Source: an uncultured Ignavibacteria bacterium (GTDB lineage Bacteria; Zixibacteria; MSB-5A5; RBG-16-43-9). From it: a DNA stretch of 64,000 bases. Each line of letters starts with the position of its first letter. The first letter of the stretch is position 1. A model generated the notes under the pieces. The model had not been told where the DNA came from. It made no database searches and saw only the letters and a list, made by a program, of their open reading frames with translations. The translations under genes and the position numbers were made by a program. The stretch covers positions 3,629 to 67,628 of the forward strand of contig CAZMZF010000011.1 in assembly GCA_964570765.1 (NCBI GenBank), given 5' to 3'. Shown here one piece after another: positions 9,637 through 59,881 of the stretch.

Positions 9637-9661
9637 ACTTTTATATTCAGGAGGGGAAAAG

Positions 9662-9919: not shown

Positions 9920-9928
9920 CTTAGAGAG

Positions 9929-10002: not shown

Positions 10003-10079
10003 ATTAATTAGTTCCAGTTTTACAGTGTTACTGAAAGGTCTGACCTGAGAGAAACATTACTAATTAACAAGAGGATAAT

Positions 10080-10571: not shown

Positions 10572-10592
10572 TTCTGTCCTGTTTTATTTTTT
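10558..10592 (+). terminator. Rho-independent terminator
   Basis: Hairpin 'gggacagaacatagttctgtcc' followed by 'tgttttatttttt'. Confidence 0.7.
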
Positions 10593-10600
10593 AGTGTAAA

Positions 10601-10735
10601 AAACGTACAGTCGGGCTTTATGCCCGACGGGTGGCTGGTCGTAGGGCGAACCTTTCAGGTTCGCAATGCGAGGCTCAAAGCCTCGCGCTACGAAATTCAG
10701 AAAGCGGGAGGGGACAAGCCCCTCCCCTACGAAAA
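10601..10735. repeat. Tandem array of four GC-rich hairpins
   Basis: The four hairpins are 'gtcgggctttatgcccgac', 'ggcgaacctttcaggttcgc', 'gcgaggctcaaagcctcgc' and 'ggaggggacaagcccctcc'. The first resembles 'atcgggttttatgcccgat' at 1222. Confidence 0.65.
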
Positions 10736-10807
10736 ATTTTTGTGGGGGCGTATTGTAATTACTTTTTTGTTTTACATTTATACCATTTCCCCCGTAATAA
10801 CAAAAAT

Positions 10808-11551
10808 ATGATCGACACCATAACTTTCGACCTCTGGAATACTCTGATATATTTCTCGCCTGAAGACAATCTCAAATTTAAAAATAAAAGAGTTGAGGGA
10901 TTTATCGAAGTTCTAAAAAATATCGGGGTTAATTTGTCCAGAGAAGAGATGGAGAAAGCCTATGATGAGAGTTCCGAGAGATATAAGCCTATCCGGGAAA
11001 GAGAAGAGGATATCTCTACCCGGGAACAGGTTCAGATAATCTTAGACTGTTTAGGGACTCCTGGTTTTAAAGAATTTGATGAAGAGGTTTTGAATAAATT
11101 AGAGGAGGTTTTAGCAAATCCGATACTTTCAGAATTACCATCCCTGACCGAAGGGTGTGAGGAGATATTAAGTTATTTAGATAGAAAAAATTATAAGATA
11201 GGTCTTATCTGTAATACCGGCAGGACGCCAGGAAAAGTTTTAAGGGAAGTGCTTAAGAGAAGAAATATATTTCAATATTTCAAAGTTATAACTTTCTCGG
11301 ATGAATTAAGGATACGCAAACCGAATCCTGAAATCTTTTTTTCTACACTGGAATCACTTGATAGTTCCCCAGCCTCTTCTTTACACATAGGAGATTTACT
11401 GGAATCTGATATTTTAGGAGCTAAAAGATGCGGGATGATAACGGGCTGGCTTTGCCCGGACCGGGATGGATGCCAGATAGATTTTCTGCCTGAGCAAAGA
11501 CCAGATTTCATTTTGCCTAATCTGACTTCTCTTAAAAAAATTTTAATGTAG
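10808..11551 (+). CDS. HAD-superfamily hydrolase
   Basis: HAD motif I 'FDLWNTL' lies near the N-terminus and a C-terminal 'HIGDLLESDILGA' is motif IV-like. The annotated ORF extends upstream to 10631 through the repeat array, which is probably not translated. Confidence 0.75.
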   Translation: MIDTITFDLWNTLIYFSPEDNLKFKNKRVEGFIEVLKNIGVNLSREEMEKAYDESSERYKPIREREEDISTREQVQIILDCLGTPGFKEFDEEVLNKLEEVLANPILSELPSLTEGCEEILSYLDRKNYKIGLICNTGRTPGKVLREVLKRRNIFQYFKVITFSDELRIRKPNPEIFFSTLESLDSSPASSLHIGDLLESDILGAKRCGMITGWLCPDRDGCQIDFLPEQRPDFILPNLTSLKKILM

Positions 11552-11654
11552 ATAGAGTCTAATTCCTCAAGAAGTATAACCTAATATATTAATTCTGCCG
11601 ATATATTTTATGCGAATATAACTTTAAGGGGGATAGAGGTCTTGGATTATTTTC

Positions 11655-11683
11655 TTGACAGCATCAAGAAAAACTTTATATTA
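11655..11683 (+). promoter_or_regulatory. Sigma70-like promoter for pfk (TTGACA-N16-TATATT)
   Basis: Read directly: 'ttgaca' at 11655-11660 and 'tatatt' at 11677-11682, about 30 nt upstream of the RBS and ATG at 11711. Confidence 0.5.
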
Positions 11684-11710
11684 AAAAACTCTGAAACGAG
11701 GTGAGTTAGA

Positions 11711-12763
11711 ATGAAAATCGGTATTTTAACTGGTGGAGGGGATTGTCCGGGGCTCAATGCAGTTATCCGGGCAGTGGTGAGAAAGTCAATCCTTTTTTAT
11801 AATTCAAGAGTAATCGGGATACTGGAGGGATGGAGAGGTCTTTTAGAGGAGGGATTAACTGAAGACTTAGACTTAAACCAGGTTTCAGGTATTCTGCATC
11901 GCGGTGGGACCATTATCAAAACCTCTCGTACAAATCCTTATAAAGTTGAAGATGGGGAAAGAAGGGTTATAGAGAATAAAAGGAAAATGGGGCTGGATGC
12001 AATTGTAGCAGTAGGGGGAGAGGATACCTTAGGAGTTGCCGCCAAGCTTTATCAGGCAGGGGTGAAGATTGTCGGGGTTCCCAAGACTATAGATAATGAC
12101 CTGGCAATGACAGATTATACTTTTGGATTTGATACTGCAGTGAACATTGCTATGGAGGCTATTGATCGGGTACATACTACTGCAGAATCGCATAACCGGG
12201 TAATGGTGGTTGAGGTTATGGGCAGACATACCGGCTGGATAGCCATTGAGTCCGGTATTGCCGGAGGCGCAGATATTATTCTGATTCCGGAAAAACCGAT
12301 GAATTTAGATAAAGTCTGTGAGAGTATCCGGAAGAGGCATGCGCGGGGTAAAGATTTCAGCATCGTGGTAGTAGCTGAGGGAGCCAGGATAGCTTTAGGG
12401 GAGGAGGATCAAAAGAAAGAAACTTTCATTGTGCAGGACGAGTGTAAGGATGCCTTTGGTCATGTGAGATTGGGAGGAATCGGGAAGATTTTAGCCACCG
12501 AGATAGAGAAGAGAACCGGTTTTGAGAGCAGATTCGTGATCTTAGGTCATATCCAGAGAGGTGGTACGCCCACAGCTTTCGATAGGGTTTTAGGGACCCG
12601 TTTTGGAATAGCGGCCGTAGATTTAGTCCATCAGGGAAGATTCGGAAAGATGGTTAGTTTGCAGGGTAATAAAATTATCCCTGTGGATCTTAAAGAAGCA
12701 GTTGCCAGCACCAAATATGTGGATGAGGAGCTTTATAATATTGCAGATATTTTCTCAGCTTAA
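11711..12763 (+). CDS. pfp: 6-phosphofructokinase, pyrophosphate-dependent type by signature
   Basis: 'GGGDCPGLNAVIRA' is the PFK fold. The residues that fix phosphoryl-donor specificity read 'GGEDTLG' and 'PKTIDND' (E. coli ATP-PFK has GGDGS and PGTIDND), and the Asp and Lys substitutions are the established PPi-PFK determinants. Confidence 0.85.
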   Translation: MKIGILTGGGDCPGLNAVIRAVVRKSILFYNSRVIGILEGWRGLLEEGLTEDLDLNQVSGILHRGGTIIKTSRTNPYKVEDGERRVIENKRKMGLDAIVAVGGEDTLGVAAKLYQAGVKIVGVPKTIDNDLAMTDYTFGFDTAVNIAMEAIDRVHTTAESHNRVMVVEVMGRHTGWIAIESGIAGGADIILIPEKPMNLDKVCESIRKRHARGKDFSIVVVAEGARIALGEEDQKKETFIVQDECKDAFGHVRLGGIGKILATEIEKRTGFESRFVILGHIQRGGTPTAFDRVLGTRFGIAAVDLVHQGRFGKMVSLQGNKIIPVDLKEAVASTKYVDEELYNIADIFSA

Positions 12764-12802
12764 ACCCATAATCCACTTTTTAGACGTATAAAGTTTATAA
12801 AG

Positions 12803-13474
12803 ATGAAAAATTTATTATTCAGGATAGTTTTTTTATCACTTATAACCTTTTTCACAGGTTTGCTCTGGGCTGAGTTCAGTTGGGGAGTTGATCTCAGCTC
12901 TAAAGATTTGATTGGTTTTAGAGGGGGAGTCTGGAAAGTTGAAAAGGCTAAGGAATTGCCCTCAACCATTGAGGCAAAAACTTACACCCCCTATATTGAG
13001 CTTTTTATTTCCCACGGGATAAGAAAAGGTTTTTCCTTAGAATTTGACTTTGGAGCAGGTAACCGGGGGGATACTAAATTTATAATTCCAGAGGGATCTT
13101 ACTGGGAAAACTGGAATTTATACCCCATCTCCGGAAAGGTCAAATACTCCTTCTTGTCAATTTACCCCCATAAGATTTATCAACCCTATTTTGATTTAGG
13201 TGTAACCTTTTTAACCAGCACCAGCACTTATAATGACCCCTATTATCTGGATGTTACCTATGTAAATACAAAAACTACCTTGGGAGCTTTAGCCGGGTGG
13301 GGTTTGGATATTAACCTCTCTTCAAGGATATTATTTAACCTCGATTTTCAATATCGCTGGGTAAGTTTCAATAAGGAGGTTGCCGGGATTAAAAATTATA
13401 GCGGTCCCCAGTTGACTTTTGGCTTGGAATATATTATTAAACATAAAAAAGAAAAAGGTATCAATAAGCCTTAA
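12803..13474 (+). CDS. Hypothetical secreted/outer-membrane beta-barrel protein
   Basis: It has a signal peptide and alternating aromatic/hydrophobic beta-strand patterning, but no named family. Confidence 0.4.
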   Translation: MKNLLFRIVFLSLITFFTGLLWAEFSWGVDLSSKDLIGFRGGVWKVEKAKELPSTIEAKTYTPYIELFISHGIRKGFSLEFDFGAGNRGDTKFIIPEGSYWENWNLYPISGKVKYSFLSIYPHKIYQPYFDLGVTFLTSTSTYNDPYYLDVTYVNTKTTLGALAGWGLDINLSSRILFNLDFQYRWVSFNKEVAGIKNYSGPQLTFGLEYIIKHKKEKGINKP

Positions 13475-31169: not shown

Positions 31170-31250
31170 TAGCCTCGCCTAAGCGACCCTGTCCTACGGT
31201 GGCTACGCCAGACGTAGTCTCCGTTATTAGGAAAAGGGTCGCGCAACGAA
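31170..31250. repeat. Family C hairpin with GTAG-REP (family B) nested in its loop
   Basis: 'tagcctcgcctaagcgaccct[gtcctacggtggctacgccagacgtagtctccgttattaggaaaa]gggtcgcgcaacgaa'. The 4737-4782 copy has only 'gaa' in the loop. Confidence 0.8.
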
Positions 31251-40828: not shown

Positions 40829-41517
40829 CTACATCAAATTCCTTTCCCTCAAACTCACATAACTTTCATTTCCGATGATTATATGATCCAAGACATCTAT
40901 CTCCATTAATTTCCCGACCTCTACTATTTTGCGAGTAACTTTCAGGTCATTTTCAGAAGGGTCCGGGTCGCCAGAGGGATGATTATGTGCTAAAATCAAA
41001 GCAGCAGCCCCATATTCGATTGCCGGGCGAAAAACCTCTCTGGGTTGAACTATATTAAAAGTCAAACTGCCGATGGAGATAACCTCATCGTGGATTAAGC
41101 GATTTCTGATATTTAAGTATAATCCCCGGAAATGTTCCTTCTGCAGTTTTCTCATCTCCTCTAAATATTTATACACATCCTCGGTGTCCTTATAGTTGGA
41201 ATTCTACCTTTATCCTCAAGGAAAAATCTCCTGCCCAGTTCAAACACAGCCACTATCTGGCAGGCTTTTACCTGAGGAATCCCTAAGGTATTCATCAGCC
41301 TGCCTACATCTTTTTCCTGGGCAATCGCTTTTGAGCCATAGTCTTTGATTATCCTCTCAGATAGCTCGATTACATTTAAGCCCTTATACCCGGTGTTCAA
41401 AATAATAGAAAGAAGCTCACTATTCCTCAGAACATCCGGACCATATTTTATTAACTTTTCCCTGGGCTTCTGATCCTCGGGTAGCTCTTTTATTCTGATC
41501 TGATAATTATCTTCCAT
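40829..41517 (-). pseudogene. radC: radC (JAB/MPN-domain protein), split by a frameshift
   Basis: ORF 41161-41517 encodes the RadC N-terminal HhH-type region. ORF 40829-41176 encodes the JAMM motif 'HNHPSGDPDPS'. The two overlap in different frames near 41161-41176. Confidence 0.7.
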
Positions 41518-41842: not shown

Positions 41843-41935
41843 TTGCTCGATGAATTGAGCAACTACAAAACATCCATCCGTTGCCATCCTAGAAACGGAG
41901 ACTACGTCTGGCGTAGCCACCGTAGTCTAGGACAG
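41843..41935. repeat. Reverse-orientation copies of GTAG-REP families G and B
   Basis: 'ttgctcgatgaattgagcaactac' is followed by 'cggagactacgtctggcgtagccaccgtag', the reverse complement of 'ctacggtggctacgccagacgtagtctccg'. Confidence 0.75.
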
Positions 41936-47918: not shown

Positions 47919-48209
47919 ATGCAAATCGATAGAGACATTATCGAGTCCTCGCTGTCAAAGAAAGGATTTGTTCGAGAGGACTCACATCATAGATATTTTT
48001 ATCATGAGTATGAAGGTAAGAGAACTGGGCTTTACACTTACACATCTCACGGTAGTAAACACAAAACTTACCCTGAAGCTCTACTTAAACAAATGAAGAA
48101 ACAGCTTCGTTTAGACCGATTAAAACAAGTAGAGGAACTTTTTCTATGCCCGATAAATGGTGAGGGCTACAATCAAATTCTAAAGGAAAAGGGCTTCTTA
48201 ACCGAATAG
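47919..48209 (+). CDS. Putative HicA-family toxin (mRNA interferase)
   Basis: 'LSKKGFVREDSHHRYFYHE...GLYTYTSHGSKHKTYPEALLKQMKKQLRL' parallels the HicA consensus 'lkk.Gf..vrq.GSHh.f.h...g..vtvP.H..kel..gtl.sIlkqagl'. Confidence 0.5.
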   Translation: MQIDRDIIESSLSKKGFVREDSHHRYFYHEYEGKRTGLYTYTSHGSKHKTYPEALLKQMKKQLRLDRLKQVEELFLCPINGEGYNQILKEKGFLTE

Positions 48210-48298: not shown

Positions 48299-49156
48299 CT
48301 AATAATTAATCACCTGGTCGATCTTCCCCTTTTTCCGGGCAACATATTCGATCGATTTGTAGATATAATCGGAGAACAGGGCTAATAGAACTGTTGTTCC
48401 AAGCATAATCAGAAGGAGCTGGAAATCAGAATATTTAGCCAGTGTATTGCTTAAGCTTTTACCCAGAATAGATCTTCTCAGAAGCTCTAACCAGTAAGTT
48501 AAAGGTAAAGCCTTGGAGATATATTGTAGCCAATTAGGTAACAAGTCAATCTGGAAGATCGCTCCACAGGCTAAATAGAATATCCCTCCTAAGCCCTCGG
48601 TCAAAGCAAAACTGTGATGAGCAGTTAGCATAGTTATCCCGGCTAAGAGGATTCCAAGACAGGTTATCACAAATAGTCCTACTATAAAGGTGATAAAGAA
48701 TAGTGGATAATTTACCTTTAACAAATCGATAGGTATCTTCAAGACAATCATACCGAAGGCTAAAGTGATTATAATCGCAATGGTAGTGGTAATAAGTTTG
48801 GCTATCCCTCTGCCAAAAAGATAATAATACATCCTGATCGGGGCGATATAGATGTATCTCAACATCTCATAATGCTCCCGGTCTTCGTGAATCACCCAGG
48901 AGATACCGAATAAAACGTTATAGACATACATAAAGAATGTATTCCCCAGAAATATGTAGGCGAAAAGGTCAAATGAGGTCTTCCCCCGGGTAACCACTAA
49001 ATACATAAAGACCAGAATCAAAGATGAGGCAATAGGACGGATTATAGAATAGATTGCAAACAAAAATGGGTCTGCCCAATTTGCCTCCATTGCCCACCCT
49101 AATTTGCCAGCTAATCGGGTGGTTCTTAAATTATCTTTTAATTTCTGCACGAACAT
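48299..49156 (-). CDS. ABC-2-type transporter permease
   Basis: A 6-TM ABC-2 permease pattern. Confidence 0.7.
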   Translation of the reverse strand: MFVQKLKDNLRTTRLAGKLGWAMEANWADPFLFAIYSIIRPIASSLILVFMYLVVTRGKTSFDLFAYIFLGNTFFMYVYNVLFGISWVIHEDREHYEMLRYIYIAPIRMYYYLFGRGIAKLITTTIAIIITLAFGMIVLKIPIDLLKVNYPLFFITFIVGLFVITCLGILLAGITMLTAHHSFALTEGLGGIFYLACGAIFQIDLLPNWLQYISKALPLTYWLELLRRSILGKSLSNTLAKYSDFQLLLIMLGTTVLLALFSDYIYKSIEYVARKKGKIDQVINY

Positions 49157-49298
49157 AAAATTACCTTTTTCTTATCCTAAATTTGTAGTGGAAGGCTTTA
49201 GCCTTCCATTTATTTTATGGAGGTCTAATCCGCCTTCGGCGGACCGCTACATTTAAAGCGACCCTGATCCCGCCGATGGCGGGGCAATCTGGGTTGCG

Positions 49299-50084
49299 CT
49301 ACGATAATACTTTCTTCGCCACAAAAATCATAAATGGGCTTTTTGCCTCAAAAGAAGATTTGTCATAGTCACCAAATAGCTTCTCTTTTTCAAATCCATT
49401 GGAAATAAGCATCCTCTCAAACTCAGCCGGGAAAAAATACCTCATCTTCAAGTCTATAGTCTTGCGAAAAAACCTGCCATCTGGTTTGTTGGTTTCCACA
49501 AAGAGTCTGACCTTCAAAATCTGCTTGGGTTTATCATAAAATTGATTGGAGTAAATTTGAGTTAAGTCCTCTTTTTCCGGATAGCCCTCTAAAATATCTC
49601 CTTCACTTCTTAACACCCCTTCTGCCCTGGTCAGGTCTGGATGAAACACACTGATCATTAACCTCCCCTGAGAAGTAAGGTGTTTATGAACTGAGCGAAG
49701 ACAGTTATTCTGTTCCTCAATTGAAAGAAGGACCTGAAAAGAGTTAAAAGGGATAAAGATTAAATTAAACTCCTTTTTCAGATGAAAATTTCTCATATCG
49801 CCCTGAAGCAGAGTCACTCTTTTTTTGATCTCTTCTGATTCTTTGTTCAATTTCTCCCTGGCTTTATCTAACATTTTCTCTGATATATCTAAACCAGTAA
49901 TCTCTATCCCTTCTTTAGCTAAAGGAAAAAGAATCCTACCAGTTCCACAGCATAGTTCTAAAACTGGAGAACCATATCTTTTAGCGTATTCTAACCATAG
50001 AGGAATATCTGAGACAAAGCTCTGATTCCACTTATCATAAAAATCAGCATAGAGATCGAATTCATTTTTCATAGATTCTGCCAT
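49299..50084 (-). CDS. Class I SAM-dependent methyltransferase
   Basis: 'VLELCCGTGRILFPLA' is motif I, with a post-I acidic residue in 'TGLDISEKM'. Confidence 0.8.
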   Translation of the reverse strand: MAESMKNEFDLYADFYDKWNQSFVSDIPLWLEYAKRYGSPVLELCCGTGRILFPLAKEGIEITGLDISEKMLDKAREKLNKESEEIKKRVTLLQGDMRNFHLKKEFNLIFIPFNSFQVLLSIEEQNNCLRSVHKHLTSQGRLMISVFHPDLTRAEGVLRSEGDILEGYPEKEDLTQIYSNQFYDKPKQILKVRLFVETNKPDGRFFRKTIDLKMRYFFPAEFERMLISNGFEKEKLFGDYDKSSFEAKSPFMIFVAKKVLS

Positions 50085-50126
50085 CCAGAATTAACCGTAG
50101 AGACGCATTGCAATGCGTCTCTACCC

Positions 50127-50945
50127 TTATTGCCATCTCAGTGTTAATCTCCCTTCTTTCTTACCCATATTCTCCATATACTTTAAAGCATAATGGGAAG
50201 CAATAAGGAAAAGTATCGAAAGTATTACCAAAGCTCCAATCTCTAAATTGACATTCAAAAATCCAAACTCTTTCCCTCCTTTGAAAGCTAACTGCCTCAT
50301 TCCATCTAAACCCAGGGTCAAAGGGATAAAAGATGCAACCAGTCCGATGGTAAGCCCTAAGCTTTTTATGGGGAAATAGAAGCCGGATAAAAGATAAATC
50401 GGCTCCTGAAAAAGATTGGTGGTATGCCAGGCTTCCCTGCCAAAAAGCATAAATAAAGATGAGAACATCATACCTAAGCCGTAAAGGGATACCTGAGTCA
50501 GAAAGAATATCAAAGCTAATTTACCCCAGCTAATCAAAGCGAAATTTACTTTAAAGATTAAACTTCCTATCACAAAGACGAAGATCGCTCTGGTGCTTGC
50601 CAGATAAAACCCACCCGTTGCCATTCCTAAAAGGATTGCCATTCGAGATATGGGTGCGACTAAATAAAGCTCTAAATTCCCCATCTCCTTTTCCCAGTAG
50701 AACTGAGCGGCCATAGACCATAGAACGTTCATCCAGTAAGCGGTCATTGCCCCACCCAATACTACAAAACCGGTGAACTCCTCAGGTGCTTTTAAAGCTT
50801 TATAGACATAGACAAAAGCGGCTGTTGAAAGTAAAGGCAAAAGCGCCTCTGAGATAAGCCAGCTCGGTTCACGGTGAGCCCCAACCAATCTCACATAACT
50901 TCTGCCAAAGATAGCTTTTAAGTTAGTTTTCAGCTCTGTTTTCAT
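50127..50945 (-). CDS. ABC-2-type transporter permease
   Basis: A 6-TM permease. The start is placed at Met13 (AAGGA RBS), which reduces the overlap with the ATPase gene to 23 nt. Confidence 0.7.
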   Translation of the reverse strand: MKTELKTNLKAIFGRSYVRLVGAHREPSWLISEALLPLLSTAAFVYVYKALKAPEEFTGFVVLGGAMTAYWMNVLWSMAAQFYWEKEMGNLELYLVAPISRMAILLGMATGGFYLASTRAIFVFVIGSLIFKVNFALISWGKLALIFFLTQVSLYGLGMMFSSLFMLFGREAWHTTNLFQEPIYLLSGFYFPIKSLGLTIGLVASFIPLTLGLDGMRQLAFKGGKEFGFLNVNLEIGALVILSILFLIASHYALKYMENMGKKEGRLTLRWQ

Positions 50946-51942
50946 TTTCCAATCCTTTACCACATAGGGAAACAAAGACATCTTCTAAGGTTGGCTCAGT
51001 TTTGGATAGACTCAATATCTCTGAGCCATTATTACTTATCGCCTCAGTTACCCCGGAGATATAAGAATCGTTCTCCAGGATGAATTTTAAATCGGTTCTG
51101 CCAATGTGGGGTTTATGCTCAAAGGCAAACTTTATCACCCCGGGTATATTTATGAATCTATCTAAATTCTCTAACATCAAATTCACCTCGATATGGAAAA
51201 CTGCATCCTGCTTTAAGGATTTCTTAAGATTAAAAGGTGAATCACAGGCCAGGACTTTTCCATTGTCGATTATAGCTACCCGGTCGCAAAGCTCATCTGC
51301 CTCTGCCATATAATGAGTGGTGAGTAACACGGTTTTTTCCTGATTCTCCTTCACCCAGGATTTTATATATTTTCTTACCTCCCGGGAGATCTGCACATCT
51401 AATCCCAGGGTTGGCTCATCTAAGAATAATATTTGTGGATCGCAGACAAAACCACGGATGATATTCATCTTCTGTCTCATCCCGGTGGAAAGCTTGGAGA
51501 TTTTGAGCCGGGCATACTCCTCCATACCCAAGAATTTCAATAGTTCATCGATTCTCTGTAAGGCTAATTTAGTGTTCATACCATACAATTGAGAGAAAAG
51601 CCATAAATTTTCCCTTACAGTTAAGATACCATATCCGGAATGTTCCCCGCCTGAGACCATATTTATCTTTTTCCTCACCTTTTCTGGATATTTTGCCACA
51701 TCGATATTATCCACTAAGGCGATTCCAGAGGTAGGCAGAAGAAGAGTCGATAATATCTTTATTAAAGTGGTCTTGCCAGCCCCGTTTGGACCTAAAACTC
51801 CAAAAAGCTCACCCGGGTTTATGGTCAGGGTAACCTTATCCAATGCCATTATCAGGTTAGTCTGTTTGGAATTGGAATTGTTTTTCTTTTTACCCTTTTT
51901 AAAAGTCCGGGTCAAATCCAAAGTTTCTACGGCGTAACTCAT
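50923..51942 (-). CDS. ABC transporter ATP-binding protein
   Basis: Walker A 'GPNGAGKTT', the signature 'LSTGMRQKMNI' and Walker B 'ILFLDEPT'. Confidence 0.9.
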   Translation of the reverse strand: MSYAVETLDLTRTFKKGKKKNNSNSKQTNLIMALDKVTLTINPGELFGVLGPNGAGKTTLIKILSTLLLPTSGIALVDNIDVAKYPEKVRKKINMVSGGEHSGYGILTVRENLWLFSQLYGMNTKLALQRIDELLKFLGMEEYARLKISKLSTGMRQKMNIIRGFVCDPQILFLDEPTLGLDVQISREVRKYIKSWVKENQEKTVLLTTHYMAEADELCDRVAIIDNGKVLACDSPFNLKKSLKQDAVFHIEVNLMLENLDRFINIPGVIKFAFEHKPHIGRTDLKFILENDSYISGVTEAISNNGSEILSLSKTEPTLEDVFVSLCGKGLENENRAEN

Positions 51943-51975
51943 ATTTTAAATCCTTTATAGTTATTTTCATAAATT

Positions 51976-52014
51976 AAAAAACCGTGACCTACTCTGGATA
52001 AGTCACGGTTTTAA
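51976..52014 (-). promoter_or_regulatory. Terminator-like hairpin in the 5' leader of the ABC exporter operon (possible attenuator)
   Basis: 'aaccgtgacctactctggataagtcacggtt' has a 9-bp stem. On the transcribed minus strand it is followed by a U-run, about 35 nt upstream of the ATPase start codon. Confidence 0.4.
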
Positions 52015-52352
52015 TAAACCTTATTTTTCCTTATCTCATTTCAGCCTTTTACCCTTTGAAGCGGGCAGAGTTATCCCTGTGCAAAAATCTTTATTAATTC
52101 TAAGTCTCACTCCATTCACCTCCGAACAAAAGACTACAATTTTTATAATTATACGTTGATATTTTATTTTGTCAAGGAAAATTTTTGAATTTTATCATAC
52201 TTTAAAGATAGATTTTATCTCTAATTGATCCATTCTGGATAATAATTTTATGAATAGGCTAACCTAAAAAGAAATCTTTTTATAAAATTAATAAATAATC
52301 GTTCAAAACCGTATTATTTTAAAACCTTTTTTAACCACTAAGGAGGTGATAT

Positions 52353-52952
52353 ATGAAGAAGGTTAGTTTAGTAATGAGCTTGACTTCCCTTTTCATCCTT
52401 CTGGTTTTCACCTGGTCCTTTGCCCAGATGGAGATGGGTAAGGGTTGTTCTCATGAGATGAAGATGATGGGTGAGGAAAAGATGATGTCCCCGGAGAAAT
52501 ACGGACAGCATCAGGAAGGGATGATGTCTCAAATGGGATGCTCTAAAAAGGGTATGGAGATGGGGATGGGGATGAAGATGTGCGGGATGATGGGTGAGGG
52601 AGAGGAGATGGGATGTTGTAAAATGGAGTTTTTCCTCTGCTGTAAAGATGAATTAGGTCTCACTGATAAACAGATCGAAAGCTTAAAATCCATGAAAATG
52701 GACTTTATGAAGACGAAAATCAAGATGGGAGCCGATCTGCAGATAGCCCAGTTGGAGCTAAAAGCCCTTATGGGTGATGACAAAGCCAGCTTGAAAGATA
52801 TAGAGGCTAAATTAAGGGCAGTGGAAAAGATGAAAACAGATATGAAGATTACCCATCTGAAAGCTTTCAGAGATGCCAAAGCGCTTTTGACTCCGGAGCA
52901 GAAGGAAAAGATGATGAAGTGTGATAAAATGAAATCAGAAGAAGAAAAATAA
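52353..52952 (+). CDS. Met/Cys-rich periplasmic protein with LTXXQ motifs (Spy/CpxP/ZraP 'Metal_resist'-type)
   Basis: A signal peptide, then Met-rich repeats 'MGMGMKMCGMMGEGEEMGCC', then two LTXXQ motifs ('LGLTDKQIESL', 'LLTPEQKEKM'). Confidence 0.7.
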   Translation: MKKVSLVMSLTSLFILLVFTWSFAQMEMGKGCSHEMKMMGEEKMMSPEKYGQHQEGMMSQMGCSKKGMEMGMGMKMCGMMGEGEEMGCCKMEFFLCCKDELGLTDKQIESLKSMKMDFMKTKIKMGADLQIAQLELKALMGDDKASLKDIEAKLRAVEKMKTDMKITHLKAFRDAKALLTPEQKEKMMKCDKMKSEEEK

Positions 52953-52992
52953 AGAATTCCTTTTGTCATAGAGAGGCGCGGTAGTTTTAAAA

Positions 52993-53025
52993 AATCGGTC
53001 AGGTTTCACCTGGCCGATTTTTTTG
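52993..53025 (+). terminator. Rho-independent terminator
   Basis: 'atcggtcaggtttcacctggccgat' followed by 'ttttttg'. Confidence 0.7.
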
Positions 53026-53187
53026 TGCAACCAGGAAGGAAATCTCACAATTCGATTAACGTATCTGTCCCCGCAAATTCCTCTCAAAAGAGATTGACTT
53101 TTAAAATGAAATTGGATAAGCTATATTAGGTTTAATTGACTTAAGAGACAAGTTTCATTTTTACCACCCTGTAGGGAGCAGACTTAT

Positions 53188-56142
53188 ATGGGCACACAAA
53201 AAGACCAGATACCTCGCCTAACTCTCTTTTTCCGCTATCTTGTTCTCACGGTGATGACCCTTGTTCTTACCGCAATGGTAATTGCCTCCTTTTGGATGGT
53301 TCATCAGTGGGTACGTTATATGGACGTTCACCCCGGACTCTGGGTATACAATATCGACAACTATGGAAATTTGTGGAGCGTTTTTGACATTCGGGAGAGA
53401 GGGCATGTGGTTGTTTCGGGAGTGGATTCTACGAGCGCGGCGGAAAAGGCGGGGATTCAAGCCGGGGACTCGATCCTTGCTGTTAACGGTGTAAGACTTA
53501 AAGAGAAGCCGCAAGCTTTTTTCGGCGCCTTTGTAGGAGCAGTTCCGGGCAAGGAAATTAAACTTGAGTTTATTAGAAACGGCATTACCGAGCATCGGGT
53601 TTTGGTTTTGGAAGTTAACAATATCCTCACCTCTCCAATAGGTTATCTGGGTGTTTATTATCGTTGGTTGACTCCGGACATAGCCGATAGTTTGGGTCTG
53701 AAATCTACCACGGGGGTACTGGTGGATCGGGTCGAATCCGGAACCGCGGCGGATAAAGCCGGGCTAAAAGCTGGGGATGTTCTTTTGGGGTTCGATGGAA
53801 AGCTGTTCACAACACCCGACGATTTCAGTCGTCTAGTAGATGCTAAACCCGGTAAGAAAGTAGAAATCGAACTGCTAAGAAACGGCGATACGTTAACAGC
53901 AGACGCCACACTGGGGAAAAGGCCTCCCCTGGGTTGGAACTACCTGGGTTTCCAGTTCCGAGGAACTGCGCGTACACTTGCGCTGGCCTTCTACTTACCC
54001 CTCTTACTACTCACACTTCTTTTTCTCGTAGTAGGAGCGTCGATCGGCTGGCTCAAACCCCGGGACCCAGTCGCTTTCCAATGCTCCCTCTGGTTCTTAT
54101 GCTGGGTGGCACCGTGTGTTATGTTCTTCATAAATATGCCTCTTCAGGCCTCCTGGCCCGATTGGGCCTTAGCAGGAGTTTTCTGCGGTGGTATCCTCTC
54201 GGTCGGACTGATGGCCCCGTTGACTCTGCGTGTATTTTCCATCTTTCCCACCCGTTCAAGCCTGGGTAAGGTGCTCTGGAAGTGGCAATGGGCTGCTTTT
54301 CTGTTCTCAGGTCTCTACTCTTTCTCATCGTCTGCAGACTTTCTCACCGGGCTTTACGGCTGGAAATCAACCTGGCTTTTTGCTAACCCGTTGGCCCAGT
54401 TTTTCGTGAACATGGAGGAAGGGTTCGTTTCAGTTGTTGTGTTGCTTATGGGTTCACTTCTTATTGCCCAACGGATTGAGACCCGTCACCGCCCTCAGAC
54501 CCGACTCAAGATCATCGAATTTAGCCTTGTTCTGGGTCTACTGGGGATGATCGTCTATCTGGTCCCACGGACGATGTTTGGAATTACGTCTGAATCCTGG
54601 CGTCCCGCACACGGCTTTTTGAGTTTGTATCTCCCCATAGTCTTGTTTAGCGCTATTCCGCTCTCTTTTGCCTATTCTATTCTTGCCCGCAAGGTTTTTG
54701 GTATTCGCTTCATTATCCGGAAAGGTCTCCAGCATCTTCTTTTATCAAAAGGAGCACTTTTGCTCGAAGGGATAATTATCTTTCTCATCGTCTGGCAGGC
54801 TATTGGGAAAGGAGGCTCTCGTCTGGCTGGCTCACCCATTGCTGCAAGCGGCGTGGCTGTGGCGAGTGCGGTTTTAATGATGGGAACTTTGAGTCGGGTT
54901 AATCGCAAGATTATGCCCGCCATTGACCGCAGATTTTTTAGGGAAACTTTAGATGTGAGGCACCTGCTTTTAAAGCTAGGCGATCAGTTGTCTGAGTTTC
55001 GAGAGAAGGAAAAGATTCTGAAGCGGACAGCAGTAACGGTGCTAAAAGCTTTACATCCTTTAAGGGTTGTCTTGCTTTTAAAAGAAGCACAGACCAGGGA
55101 TATAAAATGTGTTCTGGACTTGAAAAATGGCACAAGTCGGTTGGCTTCCATTGAAGACTTGGAAAAAGAGGTAGTGTCTAATCCATCCCTTGAGCTTAAG
55201 TCTAAAGATTCGGTGATTAAGCAGATGGAACAAGGCAAGTCGTGGTTAGCTGTTTACCCTGAGAAACTTGACCCTGAGAATGAAGAAGAGAGAAAGTTAC
55301 TTGAGCTTAACTGTGAGCTATTGATTGGACTTCAGGGAAGCTCAGGTCTTATTGGGGTAATGGGCTTGGGAGCTAAGCTTTCAGAAGAGCCTTTCAGTGG
55401 GGAGGATAAGGAGCTTTTGCTTACTGTTGCCAGACAGATGGGGATGGCTTTAGAGAATGCAGAGCTATTAGAGGTGGCAAAACGAGAAGCAGAGCTTTCC
55501 CGAGACTTAGAGATAGCCAAACAGGTTCAGCAGAACCTTTTCCCTAAGAAGTTACCCTCAGTCCCTGGTTGGGAGTTTGCCGGGATTTGTCGCTCAGCTC
55601 GTGCAGTAGGAGGGGATTATTACGACATCTTTGAGGTTGTTCCAGGCAAGGTTCTTTTAGCCTTAGGAGATGTCTCAGGAAAAGGTTTAGGAGCTTCACT
55701 CCTTATGGCAAGTGTCCATTCTGCCATTCGCAGTCGGTCTGGGATCTCTTTAGATGACCCCTCAAAGCTGATTGTAGAACTAAACCACCATCTTTTATCC
55801 TCAACTTCACCTGAAACATTTGTCACCCTGTTTTTGGGTTTGATTGATCTTGAAACCGGAAAGCTTCAATATGTGAACTGCGGACACCCAGCCCCTATAC
55901 TGCTGTGCCAGGAAGGAAAAAAACAGGAAAGGCTTACCATAGGTGGCCCGATTTTAGGCATTTTAGATGGAGTTCCTTATATAAAAGGCGAGCATTACCT
56001 GAGGGATGGGGATGTTTTAGTCTTATTCAGCGATGGGGTAACTGAGGCTACCAATCAGAAAGAAGAGATGTTTGAGGAGGAAAGACTTTTGCAGGTGGTA
56101 AGTGATACAGCTATTTCAGAACCTCAGCTATTCTGGATATGA
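53188..56142 (+). CDS. Multidomain membrane sensor: 2 PDZ, multi-TM, GAF, PP2C (SpoIIE/RsbU-type) Ser/Thr phosphatase. The 3' end is out of frame.
   Basis: The PDZ motifs are 'AAEKAGIQAGDSILAVNG' and 'AADKAGLKAGDVLLGFDG'. About 8 TM helices follow, then a GAF-like 'LIGLQGSSGLIGVMGLGA', then PP2C motifs 'GGDYYDIF', 'ALGDVSGKG' and 'LVLFSDGVTEA'. The expected C-terminal 'FATGCEQADDISAVVIHRL' is encoded at 56150-56220 in a different frame. Confidence 0.8.
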   Translation: MGTQKDQIPRLTLFFRYLVLTVMTLVLTAMVIASFWMVHQWVRYMDVHPGLWVYNIDNYGNLWSVFDIRERGHVVVSGVDSTSAAEKAGIQAGDSILAVNGVRLKEKPQAFFGAFVGAVPGKEIKLEFIRNGITEHRVLVLEVNNILTSPIGYLGVYYRWLTPDIADSLGLKSTTGVLVDRVESGTAADKAGLKAGDVLLGFDGKLFTTPDDFSRLVDAKPGKKVEIELLRNGDTLTADATLGKRPPLGWNYLGFQFRGTARTLALAFYLPLLLLTLLFLVVGASIGWLKPRDPVAFQCSLWFLCWVAPCVMFFINMPLQASWPDWALAGVFCGGILSVGLMAPLTLRVFSIFPTRSSLGKVLWKWQWAAFLFSGLYSFSSSADFLTGLYGWKSTWLFANPLAQFFVNMEEGFVSVVVLLMGSLLIAQRIETRHRPQTRLKIIEFSLVLGLLGMIVYLVPRTMFGITSESWRPAHGFLSLYLPIVLFSAIPLSFAYSILARKVFGIRFIIRKGLQHLLLSKGALLLEGIIIFLIVWQAIGKGGSRLAGSPIAASGVAVASAVLMMGTLSRVNRKIMPAIDRRFFRETLDVRHLLLKLGDQLSEFREKEKILKRTAVTVLKALHPLRVVLLLKEAQTRDIKCVLDLKNGTSRLASIEDLEKEVVSNPSLELKSKDSVIKQMEQGKSWLAVYPEKLDPENEEERKLLELNCELLIGLQGSSGLIGVMGLGAKLSEEPFSGEDKELLLTVARQMGMALENAELLEVAKREAELSRDLEIAKQVQQNLFPKKLPSVPGWEFAGICRSARAVGGDYYDIFEVVPGKVLLALGDVSGKGLGASLLMASVHSAIRSRSGISLDDPSKLIVELNHHLLSSTSPETFVTLFLGLIDLETGKLQYVNCGHPAPILLCQEGKKQERLTIGGPILGILDGVPYIKGEHYLRDGDVLVLFSDGVTEATNQKEEMFEEERLLQVVSDTAISEPQLFWI

Positions 56143-56424
56143 TATTCAAATCAGTTGATAGTTTTGCCACTGGATGTGAGCAGGCTGATGATATCTCGGC
56201 AGTTGTGATCCATAGGCTATAGTTTATCAGTTTAGGAGGGGCTTTTATGTTATATCTATCTACCTATCCAAGAAAAAAGGGGTTCTGCCTTCCGGGCAAA
56301 AGAAAGTTTTTACTCCTGTTTGTGATTCCATTTATTATTCTTTTATTGAAACGTGGGGATACTAATGCCGGTGCATTTGTAAAAGGAGAGGGGATATGTA
56401 GTGCGTCCCGCGCCGGCGGCGGGA

Positions 56425-56530
56425 TTAGCCTCGCTTAAGCGACCCTGTCCTACGGTGGCTACGAGCCAGCCCGCCCGTAGGGCGCCAGACGTAGTCTCCG
56501 TTATTAGGAAAAGGGTCGCACTACGAATCC
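56425..56530. repeat. Family C hairpin carrying GTAG-REP (family B) plus a further nested palindrome
   Basis: 'tagcctcgcttaagcgaccct[gtcctacggtggctacga{gccagcccgcccgtagggcgc}cagacgtagtctccgttattaggaaaa]gggtcgcactacgaa'. Confidence 0.8.
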
Positions 56531-56583
56531 TAATCGTTATATGATATCCGTAATCCGTCATTTTTTTACAATATATGAATTGA

Positions 56584-56647
56584 TCGGAGTGCAAGAGCTT
56601 GCTCTTGCATTCTATCTAATATGCATCAGCAAGCTGATGCACTCCAT
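56584..56647. repeat. Hairpin element with GGAGTGCA/TGCACTCC termini
   Basis: 'ggagtgcaagagcttgctcttgcattctatctaatatgcatcagcaagctgatgcactcc'. The GGAGTGCA start is also seen at 1147, 17260 and 22603. Confidence 0.6.
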
Positions 56648-56657
56648 CTTTGTCTAT

Positions 56658-58055
56658 TTATAAGACATGAATTGGTCTTCCAGCGGTTTTTAGAGCGCTT
56701 TCCCGAACTGCTTCGGCTAAGGTGGGATGGGCATGGATGGTTTCAATCAGGTCTTTTAGTTTAGTCCCCATCTTTATTCCCAGGGCAAGCTCAGCTATAA
56801 GGTCTGTGCCTCGATTGCCCATTATTATACATCCTAAAATTTTATCAGATTTCTCATCTGCTATTATTTTTACCATCCCTTCGGTCTCATCCTCGGCTAA
56901 GGCTCTTCCGTTGGCTATGAAGGGGAATCGGCCGGTTTTTATTTTAAAACCTTTATCTAAAGCTTCCTTTTCGGTCAAACCTGCTCCACCGATCTCCGGA
57001 TAGGTAAAGATGCATCTGGGCACCGCGGTATAGTCCATCTTTAAATTCCCACCTAAGGCATTCTCAACTGCACATTCTGCTTCCATTGAGGCTACATGAG
57101 CTAAAAGGTAGCCTCCGATGCAATCCCCGGCTGAATATATACCTTTGAGGTTGGTTCTTAAATATTCATCTACTTTTATTTTATCATTTTCCTGCTCTAT
57201 ACCAATCCCTTTCAGATTTAATCCGGAGGTATAAGCCTTTCGACCTACGGAAATTAGTACTTTTTTAGATAAGATTTCGAGTTCCCCTTTCGGAGTTGAG
57301 ATTTTCACTTTCCTGGTTTCAGCATCTTTTGAGTAGATACCAGTAACTTTGGATTCCGTATAGATTTTTATCCCTTCTTTTTCCCATTTCCTTCGGAGCA
57401 AAGAGACTATCTCCTCATCCTCGCCGGGAAGTATCTGGGGGAGCATCTCCACAATGGTTACCTTAGTGCCGAAGGAATGATAGAGTGAGGCAAATTCACA
57501 ACCGATATATCCACCTCCCACGATCAGAAGGGTTTTTGGCACTTCCTCAAAGGATAAAGCTTTAGTGCTGTCAACCACACCATCTAAATCTGTTCCTGAA
57601 ATGGGCAGATCGATTGGAACCGAGCCGGTTGAGATCAGAATTTTATCTGCTTGTAGCTTTTCTATCCCCCCATCGGCTTTTTTTATCAATAATGTTTTCT
57701 CATCTAAGAATGATGCAGAACCTGAGATTAGATTTACCTTTCTTTCCTTCAGAAGAAATTTTACTCCATTGACCAATCTTCTCACTACCTGTTCTTTTCT
57801 CCTCATCACCTGATCCCAGTTTAAACTAGTGAAACCGGAATCTATGCCCCAGCTTGAAGATTTCTTCATAAGGGTATAAAGGTGAGCGGTAGAGGTTAAG
57901 GTTTTAGTAGGGATACAGCCGACATTTAAGCAAGTGCCGCCAACCTCCTTTTTCTCAATCAGAGTGACTTCTGCACCCAATTGAGCTCCCCTTATAGCCC
58001 CCACATACCCGGCCGGTCCTCCCCCGATTATGGCTAATTTTTCCCGATTGGACAT
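56658..58055 (-). CDS. lpdA: Dihydrolipoyl dehydrogenase
   Basis: Contains 'IIGGGPAGY' and the redox-active disulfide 'GGTCLNVGCIPTK'. Confidence 0.9.
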   Translation of the reverse strand: MSNREKLAIIGGGPAGYVGAIRGAQLGAEVTLIEKKEVGGTCLNVGCIPTKTLTSTAHLYTLMKKSSSWGIDSGFTSLNWDQVMRRKEQVVRRLVNGVKFLLKERKVNLISGSASFLDEKTLLIKKADGGIEKLQADKILISTGSVPIDLPISGTDLDGVVDSTKALSFEEVPKTLLIVGGGYIGCEFASLYHSFGTKVTIVEMLPQILPGEDEEIVSLLRRKWEKEGIKIYTESKVTGIYSKDAETRKVKISTPKGELEILSKKVLISVGRKAYTSGLNLKGIGIEQENDKIKVDEYLRTNLKGIYSAGDCIGGYLLAHVASMEAECAVENALGGNLKMDYTAVPRCIFTYPEIGGAGLTEKEALDKGFKIKTGRFPFIANGRALAEDETEGMVKIIADEKSDKILGCIIMGNRGTDLIAELALGIKMGTKLKDLIETIHAHPTLAEAVRESALKTAGRPIHVL

Positions 58056-58279
58056 TTAGTTCTCCTTTGATTTTTTTATCCATTCAAGAAAATAGTATGA
58101 GATAATTTTAAGTCAAGTTAAAAAGTTCAAGTTTTTTAAAAGTGCTTTGAAGATAACTCTCTTTCACTTTTTCAGATCGGTGTCGGTTTGAGTTTAATCC
58201 TTGACCGCAAAAATAAAGATGGTTATATTGATAATAAATTTCTTATGTGATTTAAAAAGAAAAAAATCCAGAGGGGAAA

Positions 58280-59710
58280 ATGGAAAAGGAATATAAGATG
58301 TTGATAGGGGACAAATGGGTCTCCGGGGAGAAATTTTTTGAGGTTAAAAACAAATACAATCAAGAGGTGATCGGAAAAGTTCCGGAAACAAATAAGGAAA
58401 ACTTTGAAAAAGCGGTTTTATCTTCGCTCGCAGGATTTAAAACCATATCAACTCTTCCAGCTCACCAGAGAGCAAAGATTTTACAGAATACCTCAGAGTT
58501 AATTGAGAAGAATAAGGAAGAGTTCACCCGGATAATCTGTCTGGAGGCTGGTAAAGCCTGGAAACATTCTTTAGTTGAGGTGGAAAGGTCTGTTCAGACC
58601 TTTAAGTTTGCCTCTGAAGAGGCAAAGGATATTTGTGGTCATACCGTTCCTTTAGATGCCTCAGTTGGGGGAGAGAAAAGGATTGGTTTTTTTATGAGGT
58701 TTCCAGTAGGGGTGGTCGGAGCTATCTCCCCGTTCAATTTTCCCTTGAACTTAGTGGCGCATAAAGTTGCACCAGCCATTGCAGCTGGCTGTTCAGTAAT
58801 TTTAAAACCAGCCTCATTAACCCCTTTGACCTCGATAAAATTAGGGGAGATAATGCTGGAGGCAGGGCTATGCCCAGGTGGTTTGAACATAATCTTTGGC
58901 TCAGGAGGAACAGTAGGTGATTGGCTGGTTACCGATGAAAGGGTTTCTATGATAACTTTTACTGGAAGCCCGCCAGTGGGAAGAAGGATTAAAGAAAAAT
59001 CCGGGCTTAAAAAAGTTACCTTGGAGTTAGGCTCCAATTCTGCAGTGATAGTTGACCAGGATGCGGATTTAAACTTGGCTGTGGAAAGGTCTGTTATGGG
59101 AAGCTTTGCTTATGCCGGACAGATCTGCATATCGGTTCAGAGGATTTTTCTGCATAAGAAAATCTATGAAAAATTTAAAAAAGATTTCTTGGATAAAACC
59201 TCAAAGCTTAAATTGGGTGATCCCTTAGATAAGACAATAGATGTCGGACCGATGATCACAGAAGAAGATGCTAAGAGGACTGAATCCTGGGTAAATGAGG
59301 CTGTAAAAGAGGGAGCGAAAATTTTAATCGGAGGGAAAAGGGATGGGGCTTTCTTTTATCCAACTGTTTTAGAGAATGTCAAGCCGGAGATGAAAGTAAT
59401 GGTTTTGGAGGTCTTTGCCCCGGTGGTCTGCTTTTGCCAGTTTGAAGATTTTTCAGAGGCAGTCAAGATGGTGGACAATTCGATCTACGGGCTTCAGGCA
59501 GGGGTTTTTACAGATAATATCGAAAATGCATTTCAGGCTATCAAAGGGATAAAAGTTGGTGGAGTGATAATCAATGATGTGCCAACCTATAGAGCAGATA
59601 ATATGCCTTATGGCGGGGTTAAGGAAAGCGGGATCGGAAGAGAAGGGGTAAAATTTGCGATCGAGGAGATGACCGATATTAAAATGGTCTGCTTTAACTT
59701 GAGAAAATAA
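58280..59710 (+). CDS. NAD(P)-dependent aldehyde dehydrogenase family protein
   Basis: The ALDH catalytic motifs 'LELGSNSA' and 'GQICISVQR' (Cys nucleophile) are present. 476 aa. Confidence 0.9.
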   Translation: MEKEYKMLIGDKWVSGEKFFEVKNKYNQEVIGKVPETNKENFEKAVLSSLAGFKTISTLPAHQRAKILQNTSELIEKNKEEFTRIICLEAGKAWKHSLVEVERSVQTFKFASEEAKDICGHTVPLDASVGGEKRIGFFMRFPVGVVGAISPFNFPLNLVAHKVAPAIAAGCSVILKPASLTPLTSIKLGEIMLEAGLCPGGLNIIFGSGGTVGDWLVTDERVSMITFTGSPPVGRRIKEKSGLKKVTLELGSNSAVIVDQDADLNLAVERSVMGSFAYAGQICISVQRIFLHKKIYEKFKKDFLDKTSKLKLGDPLDKTIDVGPMITEEDAKRTESWVNEAVKEGAKILIGGKRDGAFFYPTVLENVKPEMKVMVLEVFAPVVCFCQFEDFSEAVKMVDNSIYGLQAGVFTDNIENAFQAIKGIKVGGVIINDVPTYRADNMPYGGVKESGIGREGVKFAIEEMTDIKMVCFNLRK

Positions 59711-59744: not shown

Positions 59745-59881
59745 TAGATAATCTGGAGTGTAAACCTTTCCTACGGTGGCTACGCCAGACGTAGTCTCCG
59801 CTTATAGAACAGGTTTACCAGATAAAGCTAAAGTCTTCACCAGGATCCTGTGGACAAGACCTTGATGGCTTTATATTCCAG
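59745..59881. repeat. MITE-like family A element with a GTAG-REP (family B) inserted
   Basis: 'tggagtgtaaacctttc[ctacggtggctacgccagacgtagtctccg]cttatagaac...aaagctaaagtcttcaccaggatcctgtggacaagaccttgatggctttatattccag'. Compare 17312-17423, which lacks the insert. Confidence 0.8.

Follow-up and report, generated by a model that had tools for sequence, protein, structure and literature searches.

An apparently mosaic, frameshifted PDZ-PDZ-9TM-GAF-PP2C sensor phosphatase gene beside an LTXXQ gene in a Zixibacteria metagenome contig

Here we describe a locus in a 64,000-nucleotide (nt) stretch of DNA, hereafter the window, which covers positions 3,629 to 67,628 of contig CAZMZF010000011.1 (assembly GCA_964570765.1) from an uncultured Ignavibacteria bacterium that GTDB places in the Zixibacteria. 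Two genes lie side by side on its forward strand: a short one for a secreted protein with LTXXQ motifs, and a long one for a membrane-bound sensor phosphatase whose open reading frame (ORF) breaks near the 3′ end. A first-pass annotation, made by a model from the sequence alone, had drawn attention to both; the two ORFs lie where it had placed them, and every peptide string that it quoted is present in the translations. In the reading that we hold with somewhat better than even confidence, the genes are two independent transcription units, and the second encodes an accessory, mosaic and frameshifted sensor phosphatase with the order PDZ-PDZ-9TM-GAF-PP2C (9TM, nine transmembrane helices) that, as written, would be dead. 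Of the RecA matches that carry a name, the closest belong to Zixibacteria, at 84-87% identity. All compared sequences are metagenome assemblies. The features of the phosphatase gene are given here, with the evidence for each in brackets.

53082-53187, forward strand: upstream region of the phosphatase gene, with a promoter-like TTTAAA-16-TATATT at 53100-53127 (consensus scan only)
53188-56222, forward strand: PDZ-PDZ-9TM-GAF-PP2C sensor phosphatase gene (ORF list, Pfam, homologues, relatives' DNA)
53221-53298, forward strand: first transmembrane (TM) helix, TM1, residues 12-37, amino terminus inside (hydropathy; model helix 10-46)
53256-54690, forward strand: hypervariable sensory segment, rich in GC at third codon positions (GC3), with the PDZ domains and TM2-TM8 (nt identity, GC3, synonymous divergence)
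53374-53913, forward strand: tandem periplasmic PDZ domains, PDZ1 at about residues 63-140 and PDZ2 at about 153-242 (Pfam, NCBIfam, Foldseek)
53968-54936, forward strand: nine-helix membrane domain, residues 261-583 (hydropathy, model)
55006-55539, forward strand: GAF-like domain, residues 607-730, and long linker helix, residues 738-784 (weak Pfam match, model)
55585-56219, forward strand: SpoIIE-type PP2C (PPM) domain (Pfam, Foldseek)
56120/56121, forward strand: site of a one-base (G) deletion (alignment with loci L006, L097 and L098)

As given, the phosphatase ORF runs from 53188 to 56142 and encodes 984 residues. Pfam finds PDZ_2 (75.5 bits) and PDZ_6 (75.4 bits) over two stretches, against a gathering cut-off of 27, and a SpoIIE domain (PF07228; 144.5 bits against a cut-off of 25) that covers only positions 3-159 of the 192 in the profile; the GAF match is weak (GAF_3 and GAF_2, E 0.004). 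The protein was modelled with AlphaFold2 from 37 homologues (mean predicted local distance difference test score, pLDDT, 79), and its folds were compared with the Protein Data Bank (PDB) in Foldseek. The model shows both PDZ folds, nine long helices within residues 261-583, an alpha/beta GAF-like fold at about 607-730, a 47-residue helix at 738-784 and a PP2C fold. The PDZ tandem resembles those of DegP, DegQ and RseP, and the PP2C domain matches RssB of Pseudomonas aeruginosa (TM-score normalised to the target 0.65-0.74) and Rv1364c of Mycobacterium tuberculosis (root-mean-square deviation 3.3-3.4 Å). The two PDZ domains, the GAF-like module and the carboxy-terminal PP2C domain of the first-pass annotation are borne out by domain annotation, model and fold search, and its assignment of an RsbU/SpoIIE-type output holds on the Pfam SpoIIE match and the PP2C fold. 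PDZ2 is like the first PDZ domain of HtrA and carries a YLGV carboxylate-binding-loop motif conserved in the clade. The NCBIfam models of DegP, DegQ, DegS and RseP match partially, over the PDZ regions only, and Pfam detects no protease domain in the protein, whether trypsin-like or M50 with its HExxH.

Hydropathy, the positive-inside rule and the model agree on ten TM segments, TM1 and the nine of the membrane domain, with both termini inside and with cytoplasmic loops rich in Lys and Arg, so that the earlier figure of about eight TM helices was slightly low. The same topology agrees with the periplasmic placement that had been proposed for the PDZ domains, which are predicted to lie outside the cytoplasm. 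At the other end, the PP2C motifs GGDYYD, GDVSGKG and SDGVTEA are in frame and the last one, QADDIS, is out of frame; the Asp residues of these motifs are invariant or nearly so across the family.

The nine-helix domain matches no Pfam or NCBIfam model and no PDB fold at E <= 1e-3. A weak NCBIfam match to the histidine kinase PrsK (E 0.0016) was set aside as evidence of homology for the membrane domain, since it extends no further than the juxtamembrane and GAF region. Relatives of the membrane domain were counted in a full HMMER scan of 1.84 billion cluster representatives (clusters at 50% identity), which gave 453 at E <= 1e-3, 102 at E <= 1e-10 and 21 at E <= 1e-30, and the domain make-up of the family was taken from a sample of 53 representatives of these 453 clusters. 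SpoIIE is present in 50/53, GAF in 47/53, a detectable PDZ in 17/53, a Ser/Thr kinase domain in 2/53 and a histidine kinase domain in 1/53; because SpoIIE and GAF are so much more frequent than PDZ, the conserved core is, to judge from this sample, 9TM-GAF-PP2C, and proteins with the tandem PDZ make up a small subclade. The full architecture is found in about 15 metagenome proteins at 40-73% identity, named, if at all, generically ("RsbU", "SpoIIE family protein phosphatase"), while the close relatives P0010 and P0012 are without PDZ2. A word-based search found PDZ-TM-GAF modules on PAS-HisKA-HATPase kinases also. By a scan of species-representative genomes, the wider family occurs mainly in metagenome-assembled genomes (MAGs) of Acidobacteriota, Eisenbacteria, Ignavibacteria and Bacteroidota; among the GTDB representatives there was no close relative of the phosphatase gene itself, and since the best match, in Eisenbacteria, reached only 37% identity, the scan is uninformative on synteny. 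The literature search found no characterised PDZ-PP2C sensor. A published census of PDZ proteins in bacteria (PMC6411480) includes families of PDZ proteases and a kinase of the ComP type, and it has no PDZ-phosphatase; with no PDZ-PP2C in that census and no model for the 9TM domain, the earlier remark that this is not a characterised architecture still stands.

A single base breaks the 3′ end of the gene. Where L006, L097 and L098 read GAAGCCTCAG, the window reads GAA-CCTCAG, with one G missing at 56120/56121 and a premature stop at 56140-56142. The frame of the ORF thus ends in ...DTAISEPQLFWI, and the neighbouring frame continues as SAILDMIFKSVDSFATGCEQADDISAVVIHRL, ending at 56222. Restoring one G gives a 1011-residue product that ends at 56219, with its stop codon at 56220-56222; full-length homologues have 1010-1021 residues and end in ...ISEASAILDMI(F/L)KSVD.F..GCEQADDIS... 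The frame break that had been reported is therefore present in the given sequence, about 15-20 nt upstream of the 56135-56145 at which it had been put. It removes the last 36 residues, including a DD motif that at least 90% of the family share. In PPM enzymes the carboxy-terminal DD supplies a metal-binding Asp; of the metal-binding Asp set, the first three motifs are in frame and the DD is not, and the set is complete if the G is restored. Because this conserved metal motif is lost, the 984-residue product as written should be catalytically dead, and the copy in the window may be inactive. A programmed ribosomal frameshift was considered and rejected as unlikely, because three relatives keep one continuous frame with the extra G and no X XXY YYZ slippery heptamer is seen in 56103-56139.

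The frameshift could instead be a sequencing or assembly error, in which case the organism has an intact and active 1011-residue phosphatase, and we give this a chance only a little short of even. Over the out-of-frame tail of about 100 nt, which ends at 56222, L006 and L097 are 100% identical to the window, and there is no decay. A conserved gene in the same 64 kb, radC, is likewise split: its two overlapping ORFs on the reverse strand (UPF0758_N at 41164-41517 and RadC JAB at 40832-41176) apparently result from one missing G in CCGGAG, a second single-base frameshift. The assembly graph is also complicated by co-existing alleles: in the same study, Logan contigs end at 53208, 53484, 54756 and 56490, points at which alleles come together or repeats start, and several alleles therefore co-exist in the samples. 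Set against an error are the position of the phosphatase deletion outside any homopolymer and the 100% identity of L088, from another assembly, to the window over 3757 nt, which indicates that the window assembly is otherwise accurate. The phosphatase gene is also dispensable, absent from a close relative (L100, below), and a recent inactivating mutation is thus plausible; and the protein collection is without an identical 984-residue ORF, though it holds the product of the neighbouring gene, a pattern that would fit a pseudogene call by the depositor. Among the contigs retrieved from other assemblies none reaches 56121, and the 63-residue downstream ORF is not on record.

The evidence that the phosphatase gene is accessory comes from L100, a Logan contig of run ERR4334734. 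This contig matches the window at 52944-53024 and at 56510-58917 with no phosphatase gene between, and its identity to the window is 99.9% over the stretch that begins at 56510 and takes in lpdA. Leftward of that stretch come a 246-nt spacer and then an LTXXQ gene's 3′ end with its terminator, 88% identical to the window and 94% to L097; the spacer is homologous to sequence downstream of the LTXXQ gene in L095. Because a near-identical relative is without the phosphatase gene, segment 53025-56509 is present or absent among very close relatives, and the gene is, judged by this comparison, an accessory gene of the flexible genome. A repeat marks the downstream edge of the variable segment:

56445-56515, forward strand: dispersed palindromic intergenic repeat, core CCTACGGTGGCTACGCCAGACGTAGTCTCCGTT, here with a 21-nt insertion (sequence comparison)

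Other copies lie at 31190-31250, 41887-41923 (reverse strand) and 59765-59805 and in L006 at 6066-6149, with the core CCTACGGTGGCTACGCCAGACGTAGTCTCCGTT invariant. Assembly contigs tend to break at the repeat, and the Logan contigs L099 and L101 begin inside it, at window position 56490. An Rfam scan of 51800-56800 found nothing relevant and no match for the repeat, of which it covered the 56445 copy only. The 246-nt spacer of L100 holds a second short repeat, inverted in the intergenic region of the ABC operon (described below) of L092 and L095.

The sensory half of the gene differs from the rest in composition. The first-pass annotation had noted a GC-rich 5′ half from two 60-nt windows, for which we calculate 58.3% GC (53881-53940) and 41.7% (55081-55140), and the shift persists in a sliding-window analysis: GC is 0.48-0.54 over 53250-54900 in 300-nt windows, against a mean of 0.404 for the whole window, and the gene, at 0.478, has the highest GC of 52 ORFs. 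Its GC3 is 0.44-0.54 before about residue 200, 0.50-0.59 over about residues 200-500 and 0.36-0.47 after that. The other genes of the window have a median GC3 of 0.40 and a maximum of 0.49, excepting the Met-rich LTXXQ gene, whose GC3 is inflated by its ATG codons.

Divergence follows the same division. Homology to L006, the syntenic orthologue locus, begins at 53082 at 74-88% nt identity, with none upstream of that position; identity falls to 52-80% over 53256-54690 and is 88-100% from 55890 onward, 94.8% in the lpdA/aldh block and 96.6% in the dinG block. Synonymous (dS) and nonsynonymous (dN) divergence were calculated by the Nei-Gojobori method with L006 and L001 as references. Against L006, dS is 0.10-0.22 in lpdA, aldh and dinG, and within the phosphatase 1.07 over residues 1-480 (dN 0.33), 0.39 over 481-600, 0.71 over 601-800 and 0.33 over 801-1011. 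Against L001 the pattern is reversed, with a dS of 0.46 over residues 1-480 and 1.16 over 801-1011, and the phosphatase gene of L001 is also GC3-rich in its 5′ half, whereas that of L006 is flat at about 0.39. The ratio dN/dS is 0.31-0.48 in the sensory half, 0.12-0.19 in the output half and about 0.1 in the flanks. When 12 close homologues are compared with the window, identity is 40-79% over residues 1-480 and 57-100% over the remainder, and the closest homologue changes block by block. Because dS in the sensory half is 5-10 times that of the flanks, old alleles appear to have been joined by recombination, rather than to have evolved fast in place; and because the full architecture is conserved in about 15 proteins, there is no sign of a new domain fusion. 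The sequence comparisons thus support acquisition of the sensory half by homologous (allelic) replacement within an existing architecture. The earlier proposal of separate acquisition is retained as to separate origin, on GC3, dS and identity blocks, and modified as to manner, which was a replacement of alleles and not a fusion.

The mosaic of a foreign, GC3-rich sensory half and a native output half might also be a chimera, assembled from co-existing alleles or paralogues. L088 confirms the window at 100% over 49852-54756 and ends there, and exact matches to L006 start at 54757; none of the retrieved independent contigs spans 54757-56183, exact stretches of 60-83 nt at 55098-55180 are common to all alleles, and the relative L098 appears to have tandem paralogues. 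We nonetheless think a chimera unlikely: block-wise switches of identity occur in many homologues assembled independently from different samples, L001 shows this intragenic GC3 profile too, on a contig of 48 kb that JGI and ENA each assembled, and L097 independently carries the LTXXQ gene, the phosphatase gene and lpdA on one contig.

Two loci hold further pieces of the family. In L098, at 3935-4250, another gene begins about 140 nt past the PDZ-PP2C gene; its sequence is like the family's 5′ end (71% identity to window 53088-53304), which suggests tandem paralogues that could be a substrate for gene conversion. In L001, at 11179-12926, the PDZ-PP2C homologue is followed by a 443-residue ORF without a Pfam match and then by a 76-residue ORF that matches only the carboxy-terminal end of SpoIIE (72% to window 55957-56207) and could be one more phosphatase paralogue that is split or degraded.

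The LTXXQ gene lies upstream of the phosphatase gene, with the following features around it.

48299-51942, reverse strand: ABC-2 exporter operon of an ATPase, two ABC2 membrane proteins and a methyltransferase (ORF list)
52353-52952, forward strand: secreted Met/Cys/Gly-rich protein of 199 residues (ORF list; alignment)
52989-53026, forward strand: intrinsic terminator of the LTXXQ gene, a GC-rich hairpin followed by U7 (folding)

The 199-residue protein consists of a signal peptide (residues 1-25, ending FAQ), a Met/Cys-rich region (26-96) with a conserved MGCC...FFLCC, and a Spy/CpxP/ZraP-type LTXXQ domain (98-187) in which the motifs LTDKQ and LTPEQ are conserved. Pfam LTXXQ (PF07813) scores 23.5 bits (E 9.6e-5), just under its cut-off of 24.3, and Metal_resist (E 4.4e-4) is also below cut-off; among 24 members of the protein's family, LTXXQ matches 20 and Metal_resist 11, and Metal_resist matches distant relatives also. 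A profile of the family matches Spy (3o39) at E 7e-6 and CpxP at E 6e-3, so that the earlier description, a Met-rich secreted protein with two LTXXQ motifs like Spy, CpxP and ZraP, is sound. The 90% cluster of the protein includes a member from a Zixibacteria MAG. With Spy, CpxP and ZraP, and with CnrX-type metal sensors, the protein shares the signal peptide, the two LTXXQ motifs and a roughly 90-residue helical domain; unlike Spy, CpxP and ZraP, it has a long amino-terminal Met/Cys/Gly-rich region with conserved Cys pairs, and the conserved neighbour of its gene is an ABC-2 exporter instead of a two-component system. Its Met/Cys-rich composition and the distant Metal_resist matches suggest a probable role in the periplasm, either in binding soft metals or as a chaperone.

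The ABC-2 operon is transcribed divergently from the LTXXQ gene, stands in the same order beside LTXXQ homologues in L088 and L092-L096, with 88-91% nt identity between the window and the relatives' loci, and is a conserved neighbour of the LTXXQ gene. In L092, L095 and L096 the LTXXQ gene keeps this divergent operon (matching 48299-51942) and has unrelated genes downstream, with no phosphatase gene. In L006, conversely, the phosphatase gene is followed by lpdA, aldh and dinG, and upstream of it is an SBBP/dockerin gene with no LTXXQ gene; the upstream neighbour is a radical SAM gene in L001 and a response regulator in L004. In the loci compared, then, the LTXXQ gene travels with the divergent ABC exporter and the phosphatase gene with lpdA. 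Between the two in the window stands the terminator, with a minimum free energy of -23.3 kcal/mol (z -5.96; 0/200 shuffles fold as well), whose hairpin is kept in L100 by changes on both arms (CAGCCAGG/CCTGGCTG against CGGTCAGG/CCTGGCCG).

The first-pass annotation had suggested that the two neighbours form a functional pair. Because a terminator intervenes, each gene occurs without the other and the LTXXQ gene keeps its ABC operon, this pairing is not supported. CpxP, which modulates CpxA, offers a model for an LTXXQ protein that acts on a sensor, and in an envelope or metal stress pair of this kind the PDZ domains could read the state or the carboxy terminus of the Met-rich protein. Both products face the periplasm, and the genes are adjacent with the same spacing of about 240 nt in the window and L088, in L097 and in L098. 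We regard such a pair as improbable all the same: the strong terminator separates the genes, the homology of the phosphatase locus to L006 starts only past that terminator, L092, L095, L096 and L100 have the LTXXQ gene without the phosphatase, and L001, L004, L006 and L007 have the phosphatase without the LTXXQ gene. Our reading of the locus, as its sequence and relatives have it, is that the second gene encodes a sensor PPM phosphatase with an unusual and uncharacterised PDZ and 9TM input, and that the LTXXQ gene is unremarkable as a neighbour, its conserved partner being another.

The radical SAM gene of L001 (6632-7771, radical SAM/SPASM) stands directly upstream of the PDZ-PP2C homologue. 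It was considered as a maturase of a peptide signal and rejected, as it has only generic family matches, the adjacent 85-residue ORF looks spurious and other loci are without it.

The output of the family is best seen in three Ignavibacteria loci (L037 at 6475-11599, L042 and L057), where STAS, RsbW-like HATPase_c_2, GAF-SpoIIE and PDZ-TM-GAF-SpoIIE genes stand in a row, of which the last is a single-PDZ homologue at 24-25% identity. Because STAS/RsbW-like genes adjoin these homologues, a partner-switching output of the family is supported, and among the loci examined such neighbours are found only beside these distant Ignavibacteria homologues. In that row two phosphatases appear to feed one partner-switch module. 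A coiled-coil linker mechanism has been described for RsbU and predicted for PPM phosphatases linked to GAF, PAS, HAMP and receiver domains (PMC12143880); the GAF domain and long helix of the window protein would fit it, and on this mechanism one sensor module could serve phosphatases and kinases alike.

Several observations weigh against the reading given at the outset. With radC also frameshifted, the frameshift in the phosphatase gene may have arisen in assembly. L088 ends at 54756, at the very point where sequence common to other alleles starts; a single metagenome assembly joins the 5′ half to the 3′ half, and the mosaic signal could in part be a chimera. The adjacency of the LTXXQ and phosphatase genes, which besides the window and L088 recurs only in L097 and L098, may reflect a lineage-specific link. 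PDZ domains were detected in about a third of the sampled family and may not be the primary sensor. A hidden Markov model built from the three Ignavibacteria loci, of low sensitivity, found no STAS/RsbW-like ORF in the window or in L001, L004, L006, L007, L092, L095, L097 and L098, and no sigma-factor gene was found in the window or the loci of close relatives.

For an intact copy we propose the following course of events. A periplasmic or membrane signal, either a peptide or protein carboxy terminus bound by the HtrA-like PDZ2 or a cue sensed by the 9TM bundle, would be passed from the membrane domain through the GAF domain and the linker to the regulatory switch of the PP2C domain, and the phosphatase would then dephosphorylate a phospho-Ser/Thr protein, most likely a STAS anti-anti-sigma factor. 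PDZ domains are classic readers of the carboxy termini of misfolded envelope proteins; for the PDZ domains of this protein, an envelope-stress ligand is something that we only infer. It is possible, though in our estimate rather unlikely, that the nine-helix domain is the real sensor, of lipid, membrane state or a small molecule, and that the PDZ domains have an accessory role, tethering or modulating. Of the 53 sampled representatives, 50 have the 9TM-GAF-SpoIIE core against 17 with a detected PDZ, P0010 and P0012 have lost PDZ2, and the most conserved segments are the cytoplasmic juxtamembrane loops. On the other side, most family members keep 130-250 periplasmic residues ahead of the membrane domain, a stretch that may be a PDZ too diverged for Pfam, and the carboxylate-loop motif of PDZ2 is conserved in the clade.

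The proposed route, from a signal outside the cytoplasm to the PP2C domain, can be set beside known systems. RsbU/SpoIIE-type PPM phosphatases start stress and developmental programmes, and we know of no identified signal for most of them. With the RsbU, RsbP and SpoIIE types, including the GAF-linked RsbZ of Clostridioides difficile, the window protein shares the PP2C Asp motifs, an amino-terminal sensor and a long helical linker; it differs in its tandem periplasmic PDZ and nine-helix input, and in being a frameshifted copy. With DegS and RseP it shares periplasmic PDZ domains of the HtrA/RseP type, placed, as in RseP, in tandem between TM1 and the next TM helices; unlike them it is without a protease domain or HExxH, and it acts through a cytoplasmic phosphatase instead of through proteolysis. 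Should the intact protein work as proposed, it would be a non-proteolytic path from an envelope signal to partner switching, in phyla that are poorly studied (Zixibacteria, Eisenbacteria, Acidobacteriota, Ignavibacteria). As the sensor is in the flexible genome, with the gene present or absent and the sensory half exchanged, its variation can guide the choice of alleles to express.

The exchange of the sensory half recalls AgrC and ComP, in which a variable membrane or extracytoplasmic sensor half is joined to a conserved output half and alleles are exchanged by recombination. By analogy, the PDZ and 9TM half might be a strain-specific recognition module for a peptide, a carboxy terminus or a neighbour cue, selected for diversity and swapped through recombination among co-existing Zixibacteria, in which the gene would also be polymorphic for presence or absence, a speculation that we think has little chance of being right. 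The window gene is like AgrC and ComP in its divergent sensor half, conserved output half and recombined alleles, and unlike them in having no co-varying cognate signal gene and a phosphatase as output. Were the analogy true, the protein would represent a new class of periplasmic-peptide-sensing partner-switch inputs on a nine-helix domain.

Elsewhere in the window, at 47919-48209 on the forward strand, a small ORF with a weak match to HicA toxins (E 0.004) follows a 141-residue ORF without a family.

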